This document shows, piece by piece, positions 4,166 to 43,968 of a stretch of DNA of 64,000 nucleotides; the stretch's first letter is position 1, and each line of letters begins with the position of its first letter. Origin of the DNA: an uncultured Erysipelotrichaceae bacterium (GTDB lineage Bacteria > Bacillota_I > Bacilli_A > RF39 > UBA660); assembly GCA_902767245.1 (NCBI GenBank), contig CACXGO010000029.1, positions 31,598-95,597 on the forward strand, in the 5' to 3' direction. A program made the translations under genes and the position numbers. Under the pieces are notes generated by a model. That model was not told where the DNA came from, ran no database searches, and was given only the letters and a program-made list of their open reading frames with translations.

Positions 4166-4335
4166 AAATCATTCCTTTCTAAAATAAAAAAACTCTATCC
4201 TGTTTAAGGACGAGTTTTCCCGTGGTACCACCTTATTTTATAGTATTGCTACTACCTTAATATCGTTAACGCCGATAAACAATAAGCTCTAAAGTTTCTT
4301 CAAAATGACTATTTATTAATTTCCATCAAACATTA
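4166..4335 (-). promoter_or_regulatory. T-box riboswitch leader of gltX, with terminator/antiterminator
   Basis: Reverse strand contains AAGGTGGTACCACGGG (T-box consensus AGGGTGGNACCGCG; its UGGU is complementary to the ACCA end of the adjacent tRNA-Glu). A hairpin CTCGTCCTTAAACAGGATAGAG plus U-tract follows immediately before the gltX RBS. Confidence 0.55.
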
Positions 4336-4379
4336 ACTTTCTATAAAATAGTTTAATTTTTACTCTTCTTTTTCACTGC

Positions 4380-4823
4380 TTATAAATTTTCTAAATTTTT
4401 CTTTATAATTGAGTTTACTAAACTCATATCTGCTTTTCCTTTTACTAAAGGTGCAATTTCTCTCATTATCTTGCCAATATCACTAGGTCCAGTTGGATTT
4501 ACCTTTGCAAAAACTTCTTTAACAAGTTTTTCAATTTCGGTTTCTTCCATCATTTTTGGCATATATACATTTAATACTTCAATTTCCTTATTATTTTGTT
4601 CTACTAAATCAGTTCTGCCTGCTTTTTCAAATTCAACATTTGCTTCTTTTCTTGTTTTAATTTGTTTAGACAAAATAGAAACTAATTCAGCATCTTCTAA
4701 ACTTCTTCCTTTTGCTATTTCATCCATTTGAATAGCGGCTTTAACCATTCTAATTACGGCCAACTTTGTCTTATCTTGACTTTTCATTGCCGCTTTTAAA
4801 TCTTCCATTAATCTTTCTTTCAT
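4380..4823 (-). CDS. yqeY: GatB/YqeY domain protein
   Basis: 147 aa, typical YqeY-like sequence and the usual position upstream of rpsU. Confidence 0.8.
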   Translation of the reverse strand: MKERLMEDLKAAMKSQDKTKLAVIRMVKAAIQMDEIAKGRSLEDAELVSILSKQIKTRKEANVEFEKAGRTDLVEQNNKEIEVLNVYMPKMMEETEIEKLVKEVFAKVNPTGPSDIGKIMREIAPLVKGKADMSLVNSIIKKNLENL

Positions 4824-24858: not shown

Positions 24859-25815
24859 ATGAAAAAAAATAAAATTGTAAGTTTATTTCTAATTGGTGTT
24901 TTACTTTTAACTGCTGGTTGTGCTAAAACTCCAAAATTGGAAAATGGTAAAGAAGTATTTGCATCAATTGATGGATACAAAATTACTGCTGATGATTTAT
25001 ACGCTAGTTTAAAAGAAAAAGGCGGATTATCAGTAATGCTTGAAATGATTGATAATCATATCATTGACAAAGAAATAAAGGATAAATCAGGGGCAGAATC
25101 TTATGCAGATGGTCAAATATCAATGTATAAAGAATACTATGGTGATGAATTCGAAAGTACATTAAAAAATTATGGCTATAGTAGTATTGAAAATTTCCGT
25201 GAAATAATCTTAAATGATTATTTAAAACAAAAAGTAGCATTGAATTATTTGAAAAAGAAAGTTACTGATGATGAAGTAAAAGCATATTACGATGAAAATA
25301 TTTTTGGTGATTTAACTGTAAGATATATTTTAATTAAACCTGCTGAATTAGATGCTGATGCGTCTGATGAAGATAAATTAAAAGCTGAAAATGAAGCTTT
25401 AAATGAAGCTAAAGAAATCATCAAAAAAATTAATAATGGTGAAAAATTTGAAGATTTAGCTAAAGAATATTCTGATGATAAATTAACTTCAATAAATGGT
25501 GGTTTAATGTCAGACTTCAATACTGATCAAGTTAATAAAACATTTTTTGATGCAGCAAGTGCTTTAAAAGATGGTGAATTAACTAAAGAACCAGTTAAAG
25601 ATGAAAATGGATATAACATTATTTTAAAAGTTAGCGCTAAAGAAAAACCAGCTATTAAAGATGTGAAAGATGACATTTTAGAAAAATTAGCAGAACAAAA
25701 ATTAAATGCTTCTGAAGATACTTATACAAAAACTTGGGTTGAAATCAGAAAAAGTTATAAATTAGACATAATTGATACTGATGTTAAAAATTTATATAAA
25801 GCAAATTATGAATAA
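24859..25815 (+). CDS. prsA: Foldase lipoprotein PrsA (PpiC-type peptidyl-prolyl isomerase)
   Basis: Lipoprotein signal with LTAGC lipobox; parvulin-like domain. Confidence 0.8.
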   Translation: MKKNKIVSLFLIGVLLLTAGCAKTPKLENGKEVFASIDGYKITADDLYASLKEKGGLSVMLEMIDNHIIDKEIKDKSGAESYADGQISMYKEYYGDEFESTLKNYGYSSIENFREIILNDYLKQKVALNYLKKKVTDDEVKAYYDENIFGDLTVRYILIKPAELDADASDEDKLKAENEALNEAKEIIKKINNGEKFEDLAKEYSDDKLTSINGGLMSDFNTDQVNKTFFDAASALKDGELTKEPVKDENGYNIILKVSAKEKPAIKDVKDDILEKLAEQKLNASEDTYTKTWVEIRKSYKLDIIDTDVKNLYKANYE

Positions 25816-29633: not shown

Positions 29634-30085
29634 ATTACTTCCCTCTTAATTCCATAACTATCTAATATTTTATCTTGCAAATCAAACATTATTTTTTCGT
29701 CTTCTTTTTTCATATGATCATAACCTAATAAATGTAAAAGCCCGTGAACTGCTAAAAATGATAATTCTCTTTTTAAACTATGACCATATTCTTCTGCTTG
29801 ACTTCTTGCTTTATCAATTGAAATATAAACATCCCCTAGGATTCTTACATCTTCAAATTCTATATCTTTATGATCCTCTAAAGCAAATGTAATAACATCT
29901 GTTTCGCGATCAACTCCACGATATTTTTTATTCATCTCATGGATTTCCTCATTATCAATAATGATTATGTTAAATTCAGCATTATCAATTTTTAAATACT
30001 TTAAAGCATAGTCTAATAATCCTTCTAAAGTATTTAATTCTTCAATTTTTTCTTTTGTTTCATTAAAAATTTCAAAATTGTTCAT
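29630..30085 (-). CDS. ybeY: Endoribonuclease YbeY
   Basis: HGLLHLLGYDH metal-binding motif. Confidence 0.85.
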   Translation of the reverse strand: MNNFEIFNETKEKIEELNTLEGLLDYALKYLKIDNAEFNIIIIDNEEIHEMNKKYRGVDRETDVITFALEDHKDIEFEDVRILGDVYISIDKARSQAEEYGHSLKRELSFLAVHGLLHLLGYDHMKKEDEKIMFDLQDKILDSYGIKREVI

Positions 30086-30086
30086 A

Positions 30087-30686
30087 CTATACTCCCATAT
30101 ATATTACAAATAAAACCATCATTATAACTGCAACAATATTACAAAGTGGTTCTCTAATTTTTGCTATTTTTGTTTTATTTAAAATATAATTACCTAGTTT
30201 ATATAAATAATAACCTAAAATACCACCAACCAAATTTAAAATTATATCGTCAACATCAAATACACGACCTATTCGATATTGAATGATTTCTACCGCTAAT
30301 GATACAAATAATGAAAAAACAATCACATATTTAACTTTTCTTAATTTTGTAAAATAAGATAAATAGAAACCATATGGTAAAAATAACATAATATTACCTA
30401 ACACATTACGAATAAACATTCTACTTCCAATTTCAAAACGAAATATTTCTTTAAATGGAATCAAATTAGCTGTTGACCAATCAACATCAGCAAATGTAAG
30501 TACATAAAAGAAACACATTAAATAAAATATAAATATTAAATTTAATATTTCTTTATATAAAACAATTTTTTTCTTTTTAGAAATAAAACTAAAAAATCGT
30601 ATTGAAAATAATATTGTAATTAAAATAAGCAAAGATGGCCATATACTACTGATTACCGCTTTTATTGTCTCCTTGTACATTGTCAA
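30087..30686 (-). CDS. VanZ-like family membrane protein
   Basis: Four TM helices with VanZ-like conserved residues (GNIMLFLPYG, RVFDVDDIILNLVGG). Confidence 0.55.
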   Translation of the reverse strand: MTMYKETIKAVISSIWPSLLILITILFSIRFFSFISKKKKIVLYKEILNLIFIFYLMCFFYVLTFADVDWSTANLIPFKEIFRFEIGSRMFIRNVLGNIMLFLPYGFYLSYFTKLRKVKYVIVFSLFVSLAVEIIQYRIGRVFDVDDIILNLVGGILGYYLYKLGNYILNKTKIAKIREPLCNIVAVIMMVLFVIYMGV

Positions 30687-31797
30687 CCTCTATTCTTTTT
30701 TCTTCTGAAATATCTTCATATGTTGTAATTAAGACTTCTACTATTATTTTACTATCTTTTACATCAACTTTCAATTGCTTTTCAGAAATTATTGTTTCAT
30801 CTTCTTTTAATTTCTTTTTAATTTTTTCTTTAGCTTTTGAAATTGCTCTGTTTATTCCCTCTTCAACTGTCAAAATATGGTCAACTAAATGCACTTCTTT
30901 TACATTATCATAAGATAAATAAAAAGGTAATAAATTATGTTTAAATATAATATTTTCTTTAATTTCATTATTTGGATATTTTTTATATAGTTCATAATTT
31001 TTATTAAAGAATTTAATTTTGAAGCCATTTTTACTATTTCCTTTAACTTCTTTGATTTTTTCATGCAATGATGCACTTACATTTATTTTATACCAAACAT
31101 TTGCATATATCTTACCACTTGCATGAATCATTTTTTTATCATTAATAATTCCTGTTATTAATGTATCACCTTTTTTTACATATGTTTCTTTTTCAGCAAC
31201 TATAATTCCATTACTTGCAATAATTTTTTTAACAAGACCATCAGTTTTCGCTACAATATCTACTGGCTCTTCATTTGATATTTTTTTATTTTCTATTCTT
31301 TCTTCAACTTTAACAATATACTTGACTCCAGATTCAATTATTTCAATCCATTCTAAATCATTTTTATTTTCATTTAAAATTTCTTTTTTTATGTTTTCTA
31401 GATTTTTTGGTTTTTTATTATATTTTTTTATCCCTTTTTCTTTTAAAATATTAGTTACTAGATTAGCAATGTTTTTATTATTTTCAATTAATTCTACTTC
31501 ATAAATATAATTTGTTATAACAATTAATAAACAAATATTAATAATAATTAAAACAAATAAATGAATATTTTTATTTAAAATTGCTTTAAATTCGTTTATT
31601 CCATATCTTTTTATAATTTCAATTTCATATATTCCTTTTAATTTTATTAATTTATCAAAATCTTGCTCATAAATTAAAATCTCTACTTCATTGTTATTTT
31701 TAATATTAATATTCAAACATGTAATTTTATTTCTTTCCAATTTAATCAAAAAATTTTTAACATTCTTACCAATTACTTTGATCAAGCATCGATTCAT
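30646..31797 (-). CDS. yqfD: Sporulation protein YqfD-like
   Basis: 383 aa with a central TM helix; position downstream of the yqfC-like gene and upstream of ybeY/era as in Bacillus. Confidence 0.55.
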   Translation of the reverse strand: MNRCLIKVIGKNVKNFLIKLERNKITCLNINIKNNNEVEILIYEQDFDKLIKLKGIYEIEIIKRYGINEFKAILNKNIHLFVLIIINICLLIVITNYIYEVELIENNKNIANLVTNILKEKGIKKYNKKPKNLENIKKEILNENKNDLEWIEIIESGVKYIVKVEERIENKKISNEEPVDIVAKTDGLVKKIIASNGIIVAEKETYVKKGDTLITGIINDKKMIHASGKIYANVWYKINVSASLHEKIKEVKGNSKNGFKIKFFNKNYELYKKYPNNEIKENIIFKHNLLPFYLSYDNVKEVHLVDHILTVEEGINRAISKAKEKIKKKLKEDETIISEKQLKVDVKDSKIIVEVLITTYEDISEEKRIEVDNVQGDNKSGNQ

Positions 31798-32039
31798 GAA
31801 TCCACCAACTTTAATTCATTTATTTCACCAATAATTAATAGCTCATTATTTAAAAGACGTTTCAATTTTAGATTTTTTCCCTTTATTTTTAATATATTGT
31901 TTGGTACTAAAACATCTATTTTTTCATCTTCTAAAATAATGATTTTTATATAATTAATTATATTTAAATATTTTTTAGTATACACAATTTTAAAATCTGA
32001 ATTATTTATATAATTTCTTAATTCTTGATACATACTCAT
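31794..32039 (-). CDS. yqfC: Sporulation protein YqfC-like
   Basis: 81 aa, overlaps the start of yqfD; conserved synteny. Confidence 0.45.
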   Translation of the reverse strand: MSMYQELRNYINNSDFKIVYTKKYLNIINYIKIIILEDEKIDVLVPNNILKIKGKNLKLKRLLNNELLIIGEINELKLVDS

Positions 32040-32108
32040 AAAGTATCACCTAAATAATTTTATTATTTTTTTTAATTTTTTTTACAAAAAAATAATACTT
32101 AAGTATTA

Positions 32109-32339
32109 TTAATCAATTACTACTAAATCACCACCATATTTAACATCATATTCATCAAGAAGATCATAAATAGAATCTTTATTATCAATCATTTTTAAAT
32201 TAACAACAATATTATTGATATTATATTCGCTTATAAAATAATAAAGTTTCTTTTTAAATCTTTTTACATTATCTTTTGAAGCATTTCCACTTAATGTTAC
32301 ATATAATGCTTTCTTTCGATACTCTAAATAAATATTCAT
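32109..32339 (-). CDS. Small hypothetical protein (possible STAS-like fold)
   Basis: 76 aa ORF only; weak resemblance to anti-anti-sigma/STAS proteins. Confidence 0.3.
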   Translation of the reverse strand: MNIYLEYRKKALYVTLSGNASKDNVKRFKKKLYYFISEYNINNIVVNLKMIDNKDSIYDLLDEYDVKYGGDLVVID

Positions 32340-32442
32340 TTTTAATCACCATGTTAATAATAACGAATAATTTTTATTTTTTAAACAAGTTCGACAAAAT
32401 TAGAAAAAATTAGAACATTTTTTACAATATATTATTCTTGAG

Positions 32443-33462
32443 GTGATAAAAATGATTAAATTTAGTTTGCTATTATCTAAACTTATTAATAGCAAAAAAT
32501 TATTAAAAGCTTTAAACAAAAATATTTATAACGAAATAAATTATTCTAAAAACAAAGTTATGATTATTGATGACAATTTAGATTTCAATTTTTTGAATAA
32601 TTTATTTAATAGCTGTTCTTTCTCCTTCCAAGCTTTTAAAATCGATTCATATGATGACTTAGATGAGTTTATCTTAAACACTGCCGATAATTATGGAAAC
32701 ATTAATAAAGATTTTTTATTTTTTAAAGTTTCTGCTAAAAATATCAAAAAATTTGGTTCAATTATTAAACCAAACTATATTTTAATAAATGAATCAAGTG
32801 AATTATTAGATGAACTTGAAGTTAAAGAAGTTTTTGATGAAGCATTATTAATATTTTCGGATAAATATGATTTAAGAGGGCTTAAATACAGCATAAGTAA
32901 CAAAAATGCTGATATTTATATTACAAATATTGACTACATCAAAGAAAATATTACAATTAATGATACTTATGTGATAAATGTAAATCAAACTAATCCTTTA
33001 TACTTAGACGAAGTCCTAATGTTTTTTACTTTCCTAAAAGAAATAAATGAAGATGTTGAAATATTTAATAGAATTAACAATAAACTTTTTACTTGGGAAG
33101 ATAAAAAAATATATATAGATATTTCTAAAAATAATTTTAATGACACAATTAAATTTATTTCAAGATATACTGACTATAAAGTAGTTGTCATTGGATGGAA
33201 GAATGCTTATGAAGATATTTCATGGCTTTATAATGCTGAATTTGAACGTTTCATTAATAAAAATATCCAAAAAATATACTGCATAGGTCCAAATGCTTTT
33301 GATATTGCAACAAGAATTAAATATGCCGATTTAAACGAAAAAATTATAATACCTTCATCTAACATTGATGTCATCTTAGAAGAAATAAAAAGCTACAATT
33401 TAAATCTTTATATTCTAACAGATGAATATTATAAAAATATTATAAAAGGAGTGAAAGAATGA
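32443..33462 (+). CDS. MurT-like protein (C-terminal DUF1727 domain present, Mur-ligase P-loop and zinc ribbon absent); probable pseudoenzyme
   Basis: C-terminal VVVIGWKNAYEDISWLYNAEFERF matches the MurT signature (VISLNDNAADGRDTSWIYDADFEKL in S. aureus MurT). No GxxGK[ST] motif or Cys4 ribbon anywhere. Translationally coupled (ATGA overlap) to the GatD-like gene. Confidence 0.5.
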   Translation: MIKMIKFSLLLSKLINSKKLLKALNKNIYNEINYSKNKVMIIDDNLDFNFLNNLFNSCSFSFQAFKIDSYDDLDEFILNTADNYGNINKDFLFFKVSAKNIKKFGSIIKPNYILINESSELLDELEVKEVFDEALLIFSDKYDLRGLKYSISNKNADIYITNIDYIKENITINDTYVINVNQTNPLYLDEVLMFFTFLKEINEDVEIFNRINNKLFTWEDKKIYIDISKNNFNDTIKFISRYTDYKVVVIGWKNAYEDISWLYNAEFERFINKNIQKIYCIGPNAFDIATRIKYADLNEKIIIPSSNIDVILEEIKSYNLNLYILTDEYYKNIIKGVKE

Positions 33463-34187
33463 ATTTGACAATTGCTTACTTATACTATAATTTACTTAAT
33501 TTATATGGAGAAAATGGAAATATTAAAATACTAAAAAAGGCACTAGAAAATCAAGGAATAAATGTAATGATAAAATTTTTAGATGTAACCGATAAATTAG
33601 ATTTTAATAATTATGATTTAATTTATATGGGTTCCGGTAATTATGAGGCTTTAGAATTGATTATTAATGAATTAAAGAAGTATAAAAAAGATATAAAAAA
33701 ATATATTGAAAATAATAAATACTTTTTAATTACTGGGAATAGTATTGATATATTTGGTAAATATATTTTAAAAGATGGGAAAAAAATAAATGGTCTTGAT
33801 ATATTTGATTATTATATAAAAATTGAAGATATTAGTATTATTGATAAAGCCTTATTTAAAACAAAATTAATTGAGGAAAAAATAATTGGTTTTGAGAGAA
33901 GAAATAGTTTGATGTTCAATAATAATTATGATTTTTTTGATGTTATTGATGGTGCAAGTAAAAATATTTTAGTTGAAAAAGAAGGTGTAAAATATAAAAA
34001 TTTTTATGCCACTTATTTAATTGGGCCTTTTTTAATTAGAAATCCTTTCTTTTTAGAATATTTTATTAAATCTTTAGTTTTAAATAAAAATAAAGATTTT
34101 AAATTTAAGGAATTTAATTTAAATTTTGAAAAACAAGCATATAACAATTATTTAAGTTATAATTACGGCATTATAAAAAGCGAATAA
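33459..34187 (+). CDS. GatD-like class-I glutamine amidotransferase homolog lacking the catalytic Cys and His; probable pseudoenzyme
   Basis: LTIAYLYYNLLNLYGENGNIKIL... aligns closely with S. aureus GatD ([23 protein letters not shown]...). The catalytic LTICGGYQ is replaced by LITGNSID (Cys to Gly), and YLHGP by YLIGP (His to Ile). Confidence 0.6.
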   Translation: MNLTIAYLYYNLLNLYGENGNIKILKKALENQGINVMIKFLDVTDKLDFNNYDLIYMGSGNYEALELIINELKKYKKDIKKYIENNKYFLITGNSIDIFGKYILKDGKKINGLDIFDYYIKIEDISIIDKALFKTKLIEEKIIGFERRNSLMFNNNYDFFDVIDGASKNILVEKEGVKYKNFYATYLIGPFLIRNPFFLEYFIKSLVLNKNKDFKFKEFNLNFEKQAYNNYLSYNYGIIKSE

Positions 34188-34700
34188 TTAATTCGCTTTT
34201 ATTTTACCAAAACGATTAAAAGGAAAAAGTGAAAATTTTACTTTCCCTTTTATTTCATCTTTTGGAATTAATCCTAGAATTCTACTATCTGATGAATCGC
34301 CACGATTATCGCCCACTAAAAAATAATAATTTTCAGGGATTTCTAAATAACCTAATTTTGCCAGTGAAAAGTCTGCTGTTTCTACATCAATAAAGTTTTC
34401 TTTTACTTCCTTTTTATTAATATATAATTTTGAATCTTTGTATTCAACATATTCACCAGGAAGACCAATTACTCTTTTTACCAAATGTTCTTTAGTTCCA
34501 TTTACTTTATGATCTGCGACTACAATATCAAACCTTTTATAGTTTTTATCAAGTTTATACAAAATAAGAATTTGATTATCAACTAAATTAGGTATCATTG
34601 AACTTCCATCGACAATTACTGGGGTTGCTATAAATGTTCGAATCAAAACAATTACAACAATTATTAAAATATATGATATCCACTCTTTATACTTTTTCAT
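34188..34700 (-). CDS. lepB: Signal peptidase I
   Basis: GSSMIP (Ser), KRVIGLPGE (Lys) and GDNRGDSSDSR boxes; N-terminal TM. Confidence 0.85.
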   Translation of the reverse strand: MKKYKEWISYILIIVVIVLIRTFIATPVIVDGSSMIPNLVDNQILILYKLDKNYKRFDIVVADHKVNGTKEHLVKRVIGLPGEYVEYKDSKLYINKKEVKENFIDVETADFSLAKLGYLEIPENYYFLVGDNRGDSSDSRILGLIPKDEIKGKVKFSLFPFNRFGKIKAN

Positions 34701-35179: not shown

Positions 35180-35950
35180 TTACTTGCTTCTTGCGTAAGT
35201 CGATTCAAACTCTGCTCTTCTTATATGTCTCCAATAAATTTCGTTAATATTAAAAATTCCCATACCTTTTAATATTTCATACTTTCTATCAATATATTTT
35301 CCTACTTTATTTACAAATTCATCAGAATTTGGATTCATCATATATTCTGCAAAAACTTCAGCAATAAATTCTTCCAAAGTTATTGAATATCTTGAAAATT
35401 CAGTATACATAGATTCATATGGATATTTTTCGTGTATTATTTTCAAAAAATTTGGATCTTTTCTTAATCTTAAAATAAAATCAAAAATATGTCCGATTTC
35501 ATGATAAACAGAGCTTTTAAAAGTTGTACAACTTTGTGGATGAAGGCCTCTTTTTGCATCATTACAAGTGACCTCATCTACTTCTTTGAGCGTTTTACCA
35601 ACCAAATTTTTAGAATATGAAAGTCCAATAAAATTATTATGCGTTTTTCTATTTAATAAACTCCATATTATAAACATGTCGGATTCTGATTCAGTTACCA
35701 TTTCTTCATAATAATTTTCGGCAAGAGAAAAATGTGCTTTTAAATCTTCAAAATTTCCTATTGAACAAAAAACATTTCTTAATTCTGGATATTTTTTATA
35801 AGCATATATTAAGGCTTCAAGCATTTCATTGATTACTAGTGGATCTAAGCCTTCAAAATTAACATTTGGGATATTTAAATACTTCTTAGCATAATCTTCA
35901 TAATGTTTATGTACTTTAATTGCATCCATATTTTTCCTCTCCTCACTCAA
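35180..35950 (-). CDS. Hypothetical cytoplasmic protein with HExxH zinc-metallopeptidase-like motif
   Basis: HEIGH motif and a possible third ligand in AEYMMNP; no signal peptide. Confidence 0.35.
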   Translation of the reverse strand: MSEERKNMDAIKVHKHYEDYAKKYLNIPNVNFEGLDPLVINEMLEALIYAYKKYPELRNVFCSIGNFEDLKAHFSLAENYYEEMVTESESDMFIIWSLLNRKTHNNFIGLSYSKNLVGKTLKEVDEVTCNDAKRGLHPQSCTTFKSSVYHEIGHIFDFILRLRKDPNFLKIIHEKYPYESMYTEFSRYSITLEEFIAEVFAEYMMNPNSDEFVNKVGKYIDRKYEILKGMGIFNINEIYWRHIRRAEFESTYARSK

Positions 35951-43894: not shown

Positions 43895-43968
43895 AGGGGT
43901 ATAGTTTAATGGTAGAGCGGCGGTCTCCAAAACCGTTAATGTGGGTTCAACTCCTGCTACCCCTGCCA
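43895..43968 (+). tRNA. tRNA-Trp (anticodon CCA), CCA encoded
   Basis: AGGGGTATAGTTTAATGGTAGAGCGGCGGTCTCCAAAACCG...GGTTCAACTCC...TACCCCTGCCA, near-identical in architecture to Bacillus tRNA-Trp; anticodon loop CUCCAAA. Confidence 0.8.

Follow-up and report, generated by a model that had tools for sequence, protein, structure and literature searches.

We analysed a 64-kb stretch of the genome of an uncultured Erysipelotrichaceae bacterium (contig CACXGO010000029.1; hereafter the window), together with 17 kb from elsewhere in the same genome. On the plus strand of the window lie two overlapping genes related to murT and gatD, the genes for the two subunits of lipid II isoglutaminyl synthase. 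The upstream gene (32452..33462, +) encodes a protein of 336 amino acids with a shrunken Mur-ligase central domain and a MurT_C domain, and the downstream gene (33459..34187, +) encodes a GatD paralogue of 242 amino acids that is free of cysteine and histidine. We refer to the upstream protein, a MurT paralogue without a P-loop, as MurT' and to its GatD-like partner as GatD'. Both have kept the fold and the docking residues of their families, and both have lost the residues of catalysis.

The preliminary description of this DNA had placed two open reading frames (ORFs) at 32443-33462 and 33459-34187 on the plus strand, and both are present. The start of the first, which gave a protein of 339 amino acids, is doubtful. 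The GTG at 32443 that the ORF list took as the start falls inside a Shine-Dalgarno sequence, GAGGTGA (32440..32446, +), so the ATG at 32452 is most likely the start, which leaves 336 residues; the database protein P0121 is this 336-residue MurT' and begins at the same ATG. The GatD' gene has a Shine-Dalgarno sequence, AAGGAG (33446..33451, +), within the 3' end of the MurT' gene, and the stop of one gene and the start of the next overlap in the ATGA at 33459-33462, as had been claimed. Across six orthologous loci the junction varies from -10 to +3 nucleotides (nt), and translational coupling is conserved. The canonical gene order, with murT directly 5' of gatD in one operon, is thus found here. 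A reading of TGA as tryptophan, which would fuse or extend MurT', was ruled out: the orthologues terminate at the same residue with TAA. TGA closes 11 of the 60 large ORFs of the window and is a true stop in this genome.

Catalytic residues and docking surface

The 242-residue protein proved to be the GatD homologue that had been proposed. It matched the Pfam family GATase_3 with E = 1e-14 and 54.8 bits (cut-off 27), and the chains of solved GatD structures with E from 1e-23 to 4e-25. Its AlphaFold2 (AF2) model had a predicted local distance difference test score (pLDDT) of 95.6, and Foldseek placed it on S. aureus GatD (6GS2_A) with a template modelling (TM) score of 0.86 and a root-mean-square deviation of 2.0 Å. 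The fold includes the extra C-terminal helix of GatD, and the next fold class, HisH/PdxT, came far behind. Against the NCBIfam GatD equivalog the protein scored 105 bits, for a cut-off of 400.

The glutaminase residues of GatD' are gone. In the alignment, Cys94 of S. aureus GatD corresponds to Gly93 and His189 to Ile188, the very substitutions that had been read from the sequence alone. The whole protein contains no cysteine and no histidine, and therefore no realignment can restore a Cys/His dyad. The oxyanion-hole positions Gly60 and Gly95 are Ser59 and Asn94, and the glutamine-sequestering Arg128 is Ser126, a position that is Asn in 16/18 of the clade of GatDs paired with a short MurT (the short-pair clade). 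Three changes were confined to this clade: Asp12 to Asn, Arg128 to Asn or Ser, and Asn148 to Lys or Arg. The former nucleophile elbow T92-G93-N94 (33732..33740, +; I93-C94-G95 in S. aureus) was invariant in 81/81 family members. For Y186-L-I188-G-P190 (34014..34028, +), in which Ile188 takes the place of the catalytic His189, position 188 is I, S, N, T, L, V or F across the family. A new C-terminal tail of GatD' (..YNNYLSYNYGIIKSE; 34140..34184, +), which reads YNYGIIKxx, is conserved in the short-pair clade only.

Of the three families suggested for the pair, the Pfam search matched MurT_C and GATase_3, and MurT' had no hit to Mur_ligase_M (PF08245). MurT' matched MurT_C (PF08353/DUF1727) with E = 2e-15 and 57 bits (cut-off 25), in agreement with the C-terminal signature noted earlier, and scored 35.6 bits against the NCBIfam MurT equivalog (cut-off 800). 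Its AF2 model (pLDDT 90.6) has two domains, and the best matches in the PDB were MurT chains (E = 4e-12), followed by MurD, MurF and MurE. In the alignment MurT' is colinear with full-length MurT, with specific losses. Where full-length MurT has the P-loop VTGSSGKGTT, residues 37-46 of MurT' read MIIDDNLDFN (32560..32589, +), with Asp at the position of S. aureus Lys59. The N-terminal RGxxLPG segment is gone, the Mg2+ ligands E108, D110 and E111 are replaced, and the adenine-binding Asn residues are lost. Deleted are the G-x-N acceptor motif, the RDQxxR loop, about 24 amino acids after the NxDDP motif, and the Cys4 zinc ribbon (33 amino acids), a ribbon that is present in most Firmicutes without being universal.

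These losses are shared by the whole short MurT family, which comprises 18 clusters of 320-343 amino acids with 45-66% identity and one fragmentary cluster. Not one of the 19 retains any of K59, N85, E108, D110, E111, N130, R133-D134-Q135 and R138, and the zinc-ribbon Cys positions are absent in 19/19. A scan of the 19 sequences for a cryptic P-loop found no Walker A motif in any member. The claim that the upstream protein has neither a P-loop nor the ribbon cysteines can thus be extended to its family. Another P-loop-less MurT-like protein, P0144 (386 amino acids), carries VISTSTNYD in place of the P-loop; it retains the Cys4 ribbon and NADNP and has lost the RDQ loop and the DxSW motif. Judging by these motifs, it is apparently an independent or intermediate case of MurT degeneration.

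The MurT_C domain is the best-conserved part of MurT', and it carries the docking surface for GatD. DISWLY at residues 255-260 (33214..33231, +) corresponds to D349-T-S351-W-I-Y354 of S. aureus MurT, the GatD-docking core, and the motif is invariant in the short family and in the family of long, full-length MurTs; the invariant residues are D255, S257, W258 and Y260 (D349, S351, W352 and Y354 in S. aureus). D349 is known as the third member of a Cys-His-Asp triad in S. aureus. Its equivalent (D255 in MurT', 33214-33216) was invariant in 97/97 proteins of a lineage without the Cys and the His, and this Asp must therefore have another role. Both interface salt bridges, GatD R194-MurT D284 and GatD E224-MurT K290, are kept, as are the small GatD interface residues G20, G189 and A227, whose roles are taken from structural work on the S. 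aureus complex (PMC6113224). Because these interface residues are conserved, MurT' and GatD' probably form their own heterodimer, with 1:1 stoichiometry and contact through the MurT C-terminal domain.

With the glutaminase, ATP, Mg2+ and acceptor residues gone, both the release of ammonia from glutamine and the ATP-driven activation of the D-Glu carboxylate are closed to the pair. We consider it very likely that MurT'/GatD' cannot perform the canonical chemistry.

A second pair and the wider GatD clade

Whether a canonical MurT/GatD exists elsewhere in this genome had been left as a question, and the answer is a partial yes. A second murT-gatD pair lies on the same 875-kb scaffold as the window (L001, 6676-8729), where a 442-residue MurT with both Mur_ligase_M and MurT_C is coupled to a 242-residue GatD that is 51% identical to GatD'. 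The MurT of this long pair is intact, but its GatD also lacks Cys94 and His189: it has the same T-G-N elbow and no His, but keeps Asp12, Arg128 and Asn148. The second pair also fell below the NCBIfam cut-offs (MurT 207 bits against 800, GatD 123 against 400). Another genome carries both pairs on one 239-kb scaffold.

The substitutions in the glutaminase site turned out to be common to a large group. Gly at the Cys94 position and Asn at the Gly95 position were found in 81/81 tabulated GatD relatives; the His189 position was I, L, V, F, S, N or T, with His in 0/81, and 25/81 had no Cys anywhere. The Cys-to-Gly and His-to-Ile changes, which the preliminary description had counted towards the death of this particular pair, are real but lineage-wide and mostly stand beside an intact MurT. 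By themselves they are therefore not evidence of an inactive MurT/GatD complex. A scan of one genome per species yielded 571 loci encoding this type of GatD, all of them in uncultured gut or rumen metagenome-assembled genomes labelled Bacilli, Tenericutes, Mollicutes, Mycoplasmatota or similar, with some bin labels obviously wrong. The MurT partner was surveyed at the best 80 of the 571 loci. Two of these (L012 and L037) were cut by the contig end and had no complete MurT, two (L003 and L004) had a short MurT, and the other 76 had a full-length MurT upstream. Together with the long-pair loci L001/L002, these 76 gave a set of 78 long MurTs. K59, N85, E108, D110, E111, R133-D134-Q135, R138 and the DD motif were kept in 78/78 and N130 in 77/78, while three of the ribbon cysteines were present in 78/78 and the fourth in 56/78.

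We placed the GatD sequences in a neighbour-joining (NJ) tree, a simple distance tree rooted with the S. aureus and S. pneumoniae proteins. The sister of the short-pair clade was a clade that contains the long-pair GatDs of its own lineage, as expected if the duplication followed the loss of Cys and His. Because this loss is lineage-wide and found with intact MurT partners, it predates the duplication, and only the degeneration of MurT is specific to the short pair. The order of events was thus as follows. The glutaminase dyad was lost in the ancestor of a large clade, and the murT-gatD operon was duplicated later in one small lineage. The MurT of one copy then degenerated, while its GatD changed further (D12 to N, R128 to N/S, N148 to K/R, and the new tail).

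In S. aureus, the C94G variant of GatD no longer supports amidation of lipid II from glutamine, whereas amidation from NH3 at pH 8.5 remains intact; GatD cannot be dispensed with even when NH3 is the donor (PMC3266927), and MurT on its own is unstable (PMC6085368). Since the S. aureus mutant keeps just this activity, the natural combination of a Cys-to-Gly GatD with a fully conserved MurT fits ammonia-dependent amidation. By analogy, we infer that the long pair (L001; the L005-L082 clade) may amidate lipid II with ammonia, GatD being a structural subunit that MurT cannot do without. In this GatD, D12, R128 and N148 are retained and might still bind glutamine as a signal. In two genomes the long pair is followed by a MOP-family (Polysacc_synt/MurJ-like) flippase, a 'sugar-transfer associated' ATP-grasp gene and spoVS (L001 8740-11484, L089 5732-8518), surroundings that may be a conserved wall-modification neighbourhood.

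With two pairs in one cell, MurT' or GatD' could also swap partners with the catalytic pair and thereby titrate or tune the real amidotransferase, for example lowering amidation at a certain stage. The docking residues are identical in both pairs (DxSWxY, D284/K290, G189-P190, A227, R194 and E224), in S. aureus and S. pneumoniae MurT depends on GatD for its activity and stability (PMC3266927; PMC6085368), and both pairs occur on one contig in two genomes. However, the conserved translational coupling of murT' and gatD' favours a 1:1 complex of their own, and titration would need no more than one dead subunit, whereas both have been conserved. Changes specific to one paralogue, namely the GatD' tail and MurT position 387 (Asp vs Gly/Asn), could moreover insulate the pairs from each other. 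On balance we regard subunit exchange as unlikely.

The long pair also bears on the idea that MurT'/GatD' is still an enzyme, with a new ATP-independent site in the interface pocket (Y16, E18, T92 and N94 of GatD' with D255 of MurT') or at the acidic loop IIDDNLDF. Such a site would account for the invariance of T92-G93-N94 (81/81) and D255 (19/19), the segment that replaced the P-loop is among the better-conserved parts of the central domain, and the purifying selection described below is as strong as on housekeeping genes. However, the long pair has this TGN and this Asp just as invariably, so that they are no innovation of the short one. The nucleophile position itself is Gly, and Thr92 sits at position n-1 of the elbow, where the side chain normally points away from the pocket, as inferred from the class I glutamine amidotransferase elbow (PMC5871853). 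The pocket residues R128, D12 and N148 have been lost, and the Pfam and NCBIfam searches matched no known family with a site of this kind. We consider a new active site unlikely.

Conservation and surroundings of the pair

All full-length members of the short MurT family are intact and free of frameshifts. Besides the window, eleven contigs, which represent eight other distinct sequences, carry an intact MurT'/GatD' pair, and its position did not differ among the contigs recovered (L003, L004, L083-L088, L090 and L091). To quantify selection, we compared two species pairs with 83-86% amino-acid identity. The ratio of nonsynonymous to synonymous substitution rates (dN/dS) was 0.06-0.12 for MurT' and 0.07-0.09 for GatD', alongside 0.07 for the neighbouring lepB and 0.04-0.10 for a neighbouring 76-residue gene; dS was near 1, which makes these ratios approximate, yet they are far from neutrality. 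MurT'/GatD' is very probably functional and under selection. Between species whose housekeeping neighbours are 67-85% identical, MurT' and YqfD, encoded nearby, show 44-48% identity and diverge equally fast. The family is narrowly distributed: only two representatives were found among 1.84 billion proteins searched, and a metagenome scan for it added at least three further loci.

These data also bear on whether the pair is a decaying duplicate, that is, a pair of pseudogenes on the way to loss. The loss of all catalytic motifs, the fast evolution of MurT' (45-48% identity vs 67-85% for housekeeping neighbours) and the low local GC content (about 20%) would be expected of decay. They are outweighed by the low dN/dS (0.06-0.12), by full-length family ORFs that are intact and without frameshifts, by the conservation of the Shine-Dalgarno sequences, the coupling and the upstream block described below, and by the equally fast divergence of the neighbouring YqfD. 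No sign of a recent decaying duplicate was seen, with intact copies in the relatives, and decay is effectively refuted. The preliminary description had preferred a non-catalytic role to simple decay. Purifying selection, conservation and coupling exclude simple decay, and a non-catalytic role is the natural reading; the immunity decoy, which it had offered as one form of that role, is a different matter.

A decoy, an immunity factor or a mobile defence or phage-related factor against agents that target lipid II or MurT/GatD would agree with the narrow distribution and with the strand, since the pair lies on the lagging strand and 65 of the 69 large ORFs of the window are on the other (minus) one. 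The same count bears out the earlier remark that no other multi-gene unit of the window lies on the plus strand. However, PADLOC gave no matches, and a search of 2.9 million viral contigs turned up no relatives. In all species the pair has the same fixed place on the chromosome between housekeeping genes, with no mobile-element genes adjoining it, and the NJ tree indicates a vertical origin by duplication. The suggestion of an immunity decoy is thus without support, and we regard it as very improbable.

The pair is flanked on one side by the 76-residue gene (32109-32339, -), which is divergent from MurT' and heads a yqfC-yqfD-VanZ-ybeY-cdd-era-recO run, and on the other by a convergent lepB-rplS-trmD-rimM run. 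The sole other sizeable plus-strand gene of the window encodes a PrsA-like peptidyl-prolyl isomerase (24859-25815, +). The 76-residue protein is highly conserved (74-84% identity) and was found in only 23 clusters, many of them on contigs that agree in length with those of the short pair. Nothing in Pfam or the PDB matched it, and it may be either a third component of MurT'/GatD' or just another lineage-specific gene. The window is AT-rich, with 20-30% GC. The GC content is about 20% at 30001-34000 (yqfD, yqfC, the 76-residue gene and the pair) vs 25-29% elsewhere in the window, and the genes of this low-GC part are also the fastest-evolving between species.

An alignment of eight species revealed a conserved block, about 50 nt long, between the two divergent genes and upstream of MurT' (32384..32435, +), reading TTTTTTAAA..TTCGACAAAnTAG.AAAAAnTAGAAC..TATATTAT, or TTTTTTAAA..TTCGACAAAnTAGCAAAAAnTAGAAC..TATATTAT when the two TAG-containing half-sites are written together. 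It probably serves the pair, the divergent 76-residue gene or both as a promoter or operator region. The block has no clean sigma-70 -35/-10 spacing and may be an operator or an unusual promoter; in the scan for sigma-70 promoters and terminators, matches were no commoner than in shuffled sequence. Rfam gave no RNA element near the pair; elsewhere in the window it found a T-box leader and two tRNA genes (4203-4385, -; 2412-2485, -; 43895-43965, +).

At the other end, a 10-bp hairpin (34176..34200; AAAAGCGAAT / ATTCGCTTTT) spans the convergent stops of gatD' (..KSE*) and lepB (..KAN*). It is built from the last codons of the two genes, has a folding energy of -11.2 kcal/mol (z = -3.6) and may be a bidirectional terminator embedded in coding sequence. 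In relatives, unannotated ORFs of 309 and 57 amino acids occur between gatD' and lepB (L085 2172-3101, -; L086; L087 7733-7906, -), so that this convergent junction appears to be a small insertion hot spot. Further on in the window, rplS is separated from the next gene by an inserted ORF of 256 amino acids (35180-35950, -) with a metalloprotease-like HEIGH (HExxH) motif. L003, L083, L085 and L090 lack this ORF at that position, and it had no Pfam or PADLOC match.

Interpretation and comparison with known systems

The pair shows the features of a pseudoenzyme, namely homology to enzyme families without their catalytic residues, together with purifying selection and intact orthologues. We would give an even chance to the reading that MurT'/GatD' is a lineage-specific murT-gatD duplicate turned non-enzymatic heterodimer, with a binding or regulatory role in wall synthesis. 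In such a role, the complex would dock on a lipid-linked peptidoglycan precursor or on the wall-synthesis machinery and, as an adaptor or regulator, modulate stem-peptide amidation or precursor use, possibly timed to sporulation, since the pair adjoins yqfC-yqfD. The origin of the complex, its neighbours and the precedent of other dead wall enzymes point in this direction; that it binds a lipid-linked precursor or a component of wall synthesis and modulates amidation or precursor use, perhaps in sporulation, is a tentative proposal.

Several observations weigh against this interpretation. MurT' no longer has Asn85 and the 133-138 loop, with which MurT holds the acceptor peptide, so that lipid II, if bound by the pair at all, would not be bound in the canonical way. 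T92-G93-N94 and D255 have stayed invariant though their canonical catalytic partners are gone, and could form a new site rather than serve mere packing. The hydrophobic N-terminus of full-length MurT has become a Lys-rich helix that is weakly amphipathic (hydrophobic moment 0.2-0.3), which makes membrane association of MurT' uncertain. The housekeeping neighbourhood offers no functional partner on the same strand, and it is adjacency to yqfC-yqfD alone that possibly points to sporulation.

A bolder version of the non-enzymatic heterodimer would make it the first complex of a pseudo-Mur ligase and a pseudo-amidotransferase. It would recognise the lipid-linked precursor or the catalytic MurT/GatD, and switch stem-peptide amidation off or redirect precursors, for example to a differently amidated spore cortex. 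The setting would be a clade in which the MurT still at work uses free ammonia and needs a GatD without glutaminase activity as its structural or glutamine-sensing subunit. As a whole this picture is speculative, and we think it improbable.

S. aureus, S. pneumoniae and M. tuberculosis cannot do without MurT/GatD, which is under study as a target for drugs. In the literature searched, Cys94 and His189 of GatD and D349 of MurT are treated as conserved (PMC6113224, PMC5871853, PMC6085368). We found no report of a Cys-less GatD or a P-loop-less MurT in publications on MurT/GatD with ammonia or as a pseudoenzyme, nor in work on pseudomurein pangenomics and on the loss of peptidoglycan in RF39/RFN20/ML615J-28. 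Nevertheless, in hundreds of species among the uncultured Bacilli of gut and rumen, the partner of an intact MurT is a GatD unable to act as a Cys-dependent glutaminase. For this lineage it would be a mistake to annotate these genes as an isoglutaminyl synthase that hydrolyses glutamine. The hypothesis that lipid II amidation depends on ammonia, with a structural or ligand-sensing role for GatD, becomes testable here, and S. aureus C94G shows that such amidation is chemically possible.

The closest known system is the MurT/GatD lipid II isoglutaminyl synthase itself (EC 6.3.5.13; S. aureus 6GS2/6H5E, S. pneumoniae 6FQB). MurT'/GatD' resembles it in gene order, coupling and both folds, and retains DxSWxY, G-P, A227 and the two interface salt bridges. 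It differs in lacking Cys94/His189, Arg128, the P-loop, the Mg2+ ligands, Asn85, the RDQxxR loop and the zinc ribbon, in a MurT shorter by about 100 amino acids, and in scores far under the NCBIfam equivalog cut-offs. Because the defining catalytic features are missing and those cut-offs are failed, the pair, as far as its sequence tells, is a non-catalytic derivative of this synthase and not to be filed as that enzyme. The second pair of the same genome shares the T-G-N elbow, a GatD without His and the MurT docking motif. It differs in a MurT that keeps the ATP, Mg2+, acceptor and ribbon residues, in a GatD that keeps Arg128, Asp12 and Asn148, and in its locus. The S. aureus C94G mutant (Munch et al. 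2012, PMC3266927) carries the exact Cys-to-Gly change of GatD', but its MurT is intact whereas MurT' is dead. Its rescue by NH3 may apply to the long pair and is inapplicable to the short one, since MurT' has lost its ATP, Mg2+ and acceptor sites.

Two further comparisons come from outside the family. In the ammonia-dependent carbamoyl-phosphate synthetase I of vertebrates, a glutaminase-type domain without its catalytic Cys has been kept for a structural or allosteric function. With its active synthetase part, that enzyme is a precedent for the long pair rather than for the doubly dead one. EnvC and NlpD, with their LytM domains, are dead homologues of wall enzymes that have kept the fold, are under selection, and act by binding or activating partners in wall metabolism, although they differ from MurT'/GatD' in being periplasmic and of unrelated fold. 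MurT'/GatD' would be an example from nature of two subunits that persist as a complex though none of the chemistry is left, implying a second, binding-based use of the scaffold.

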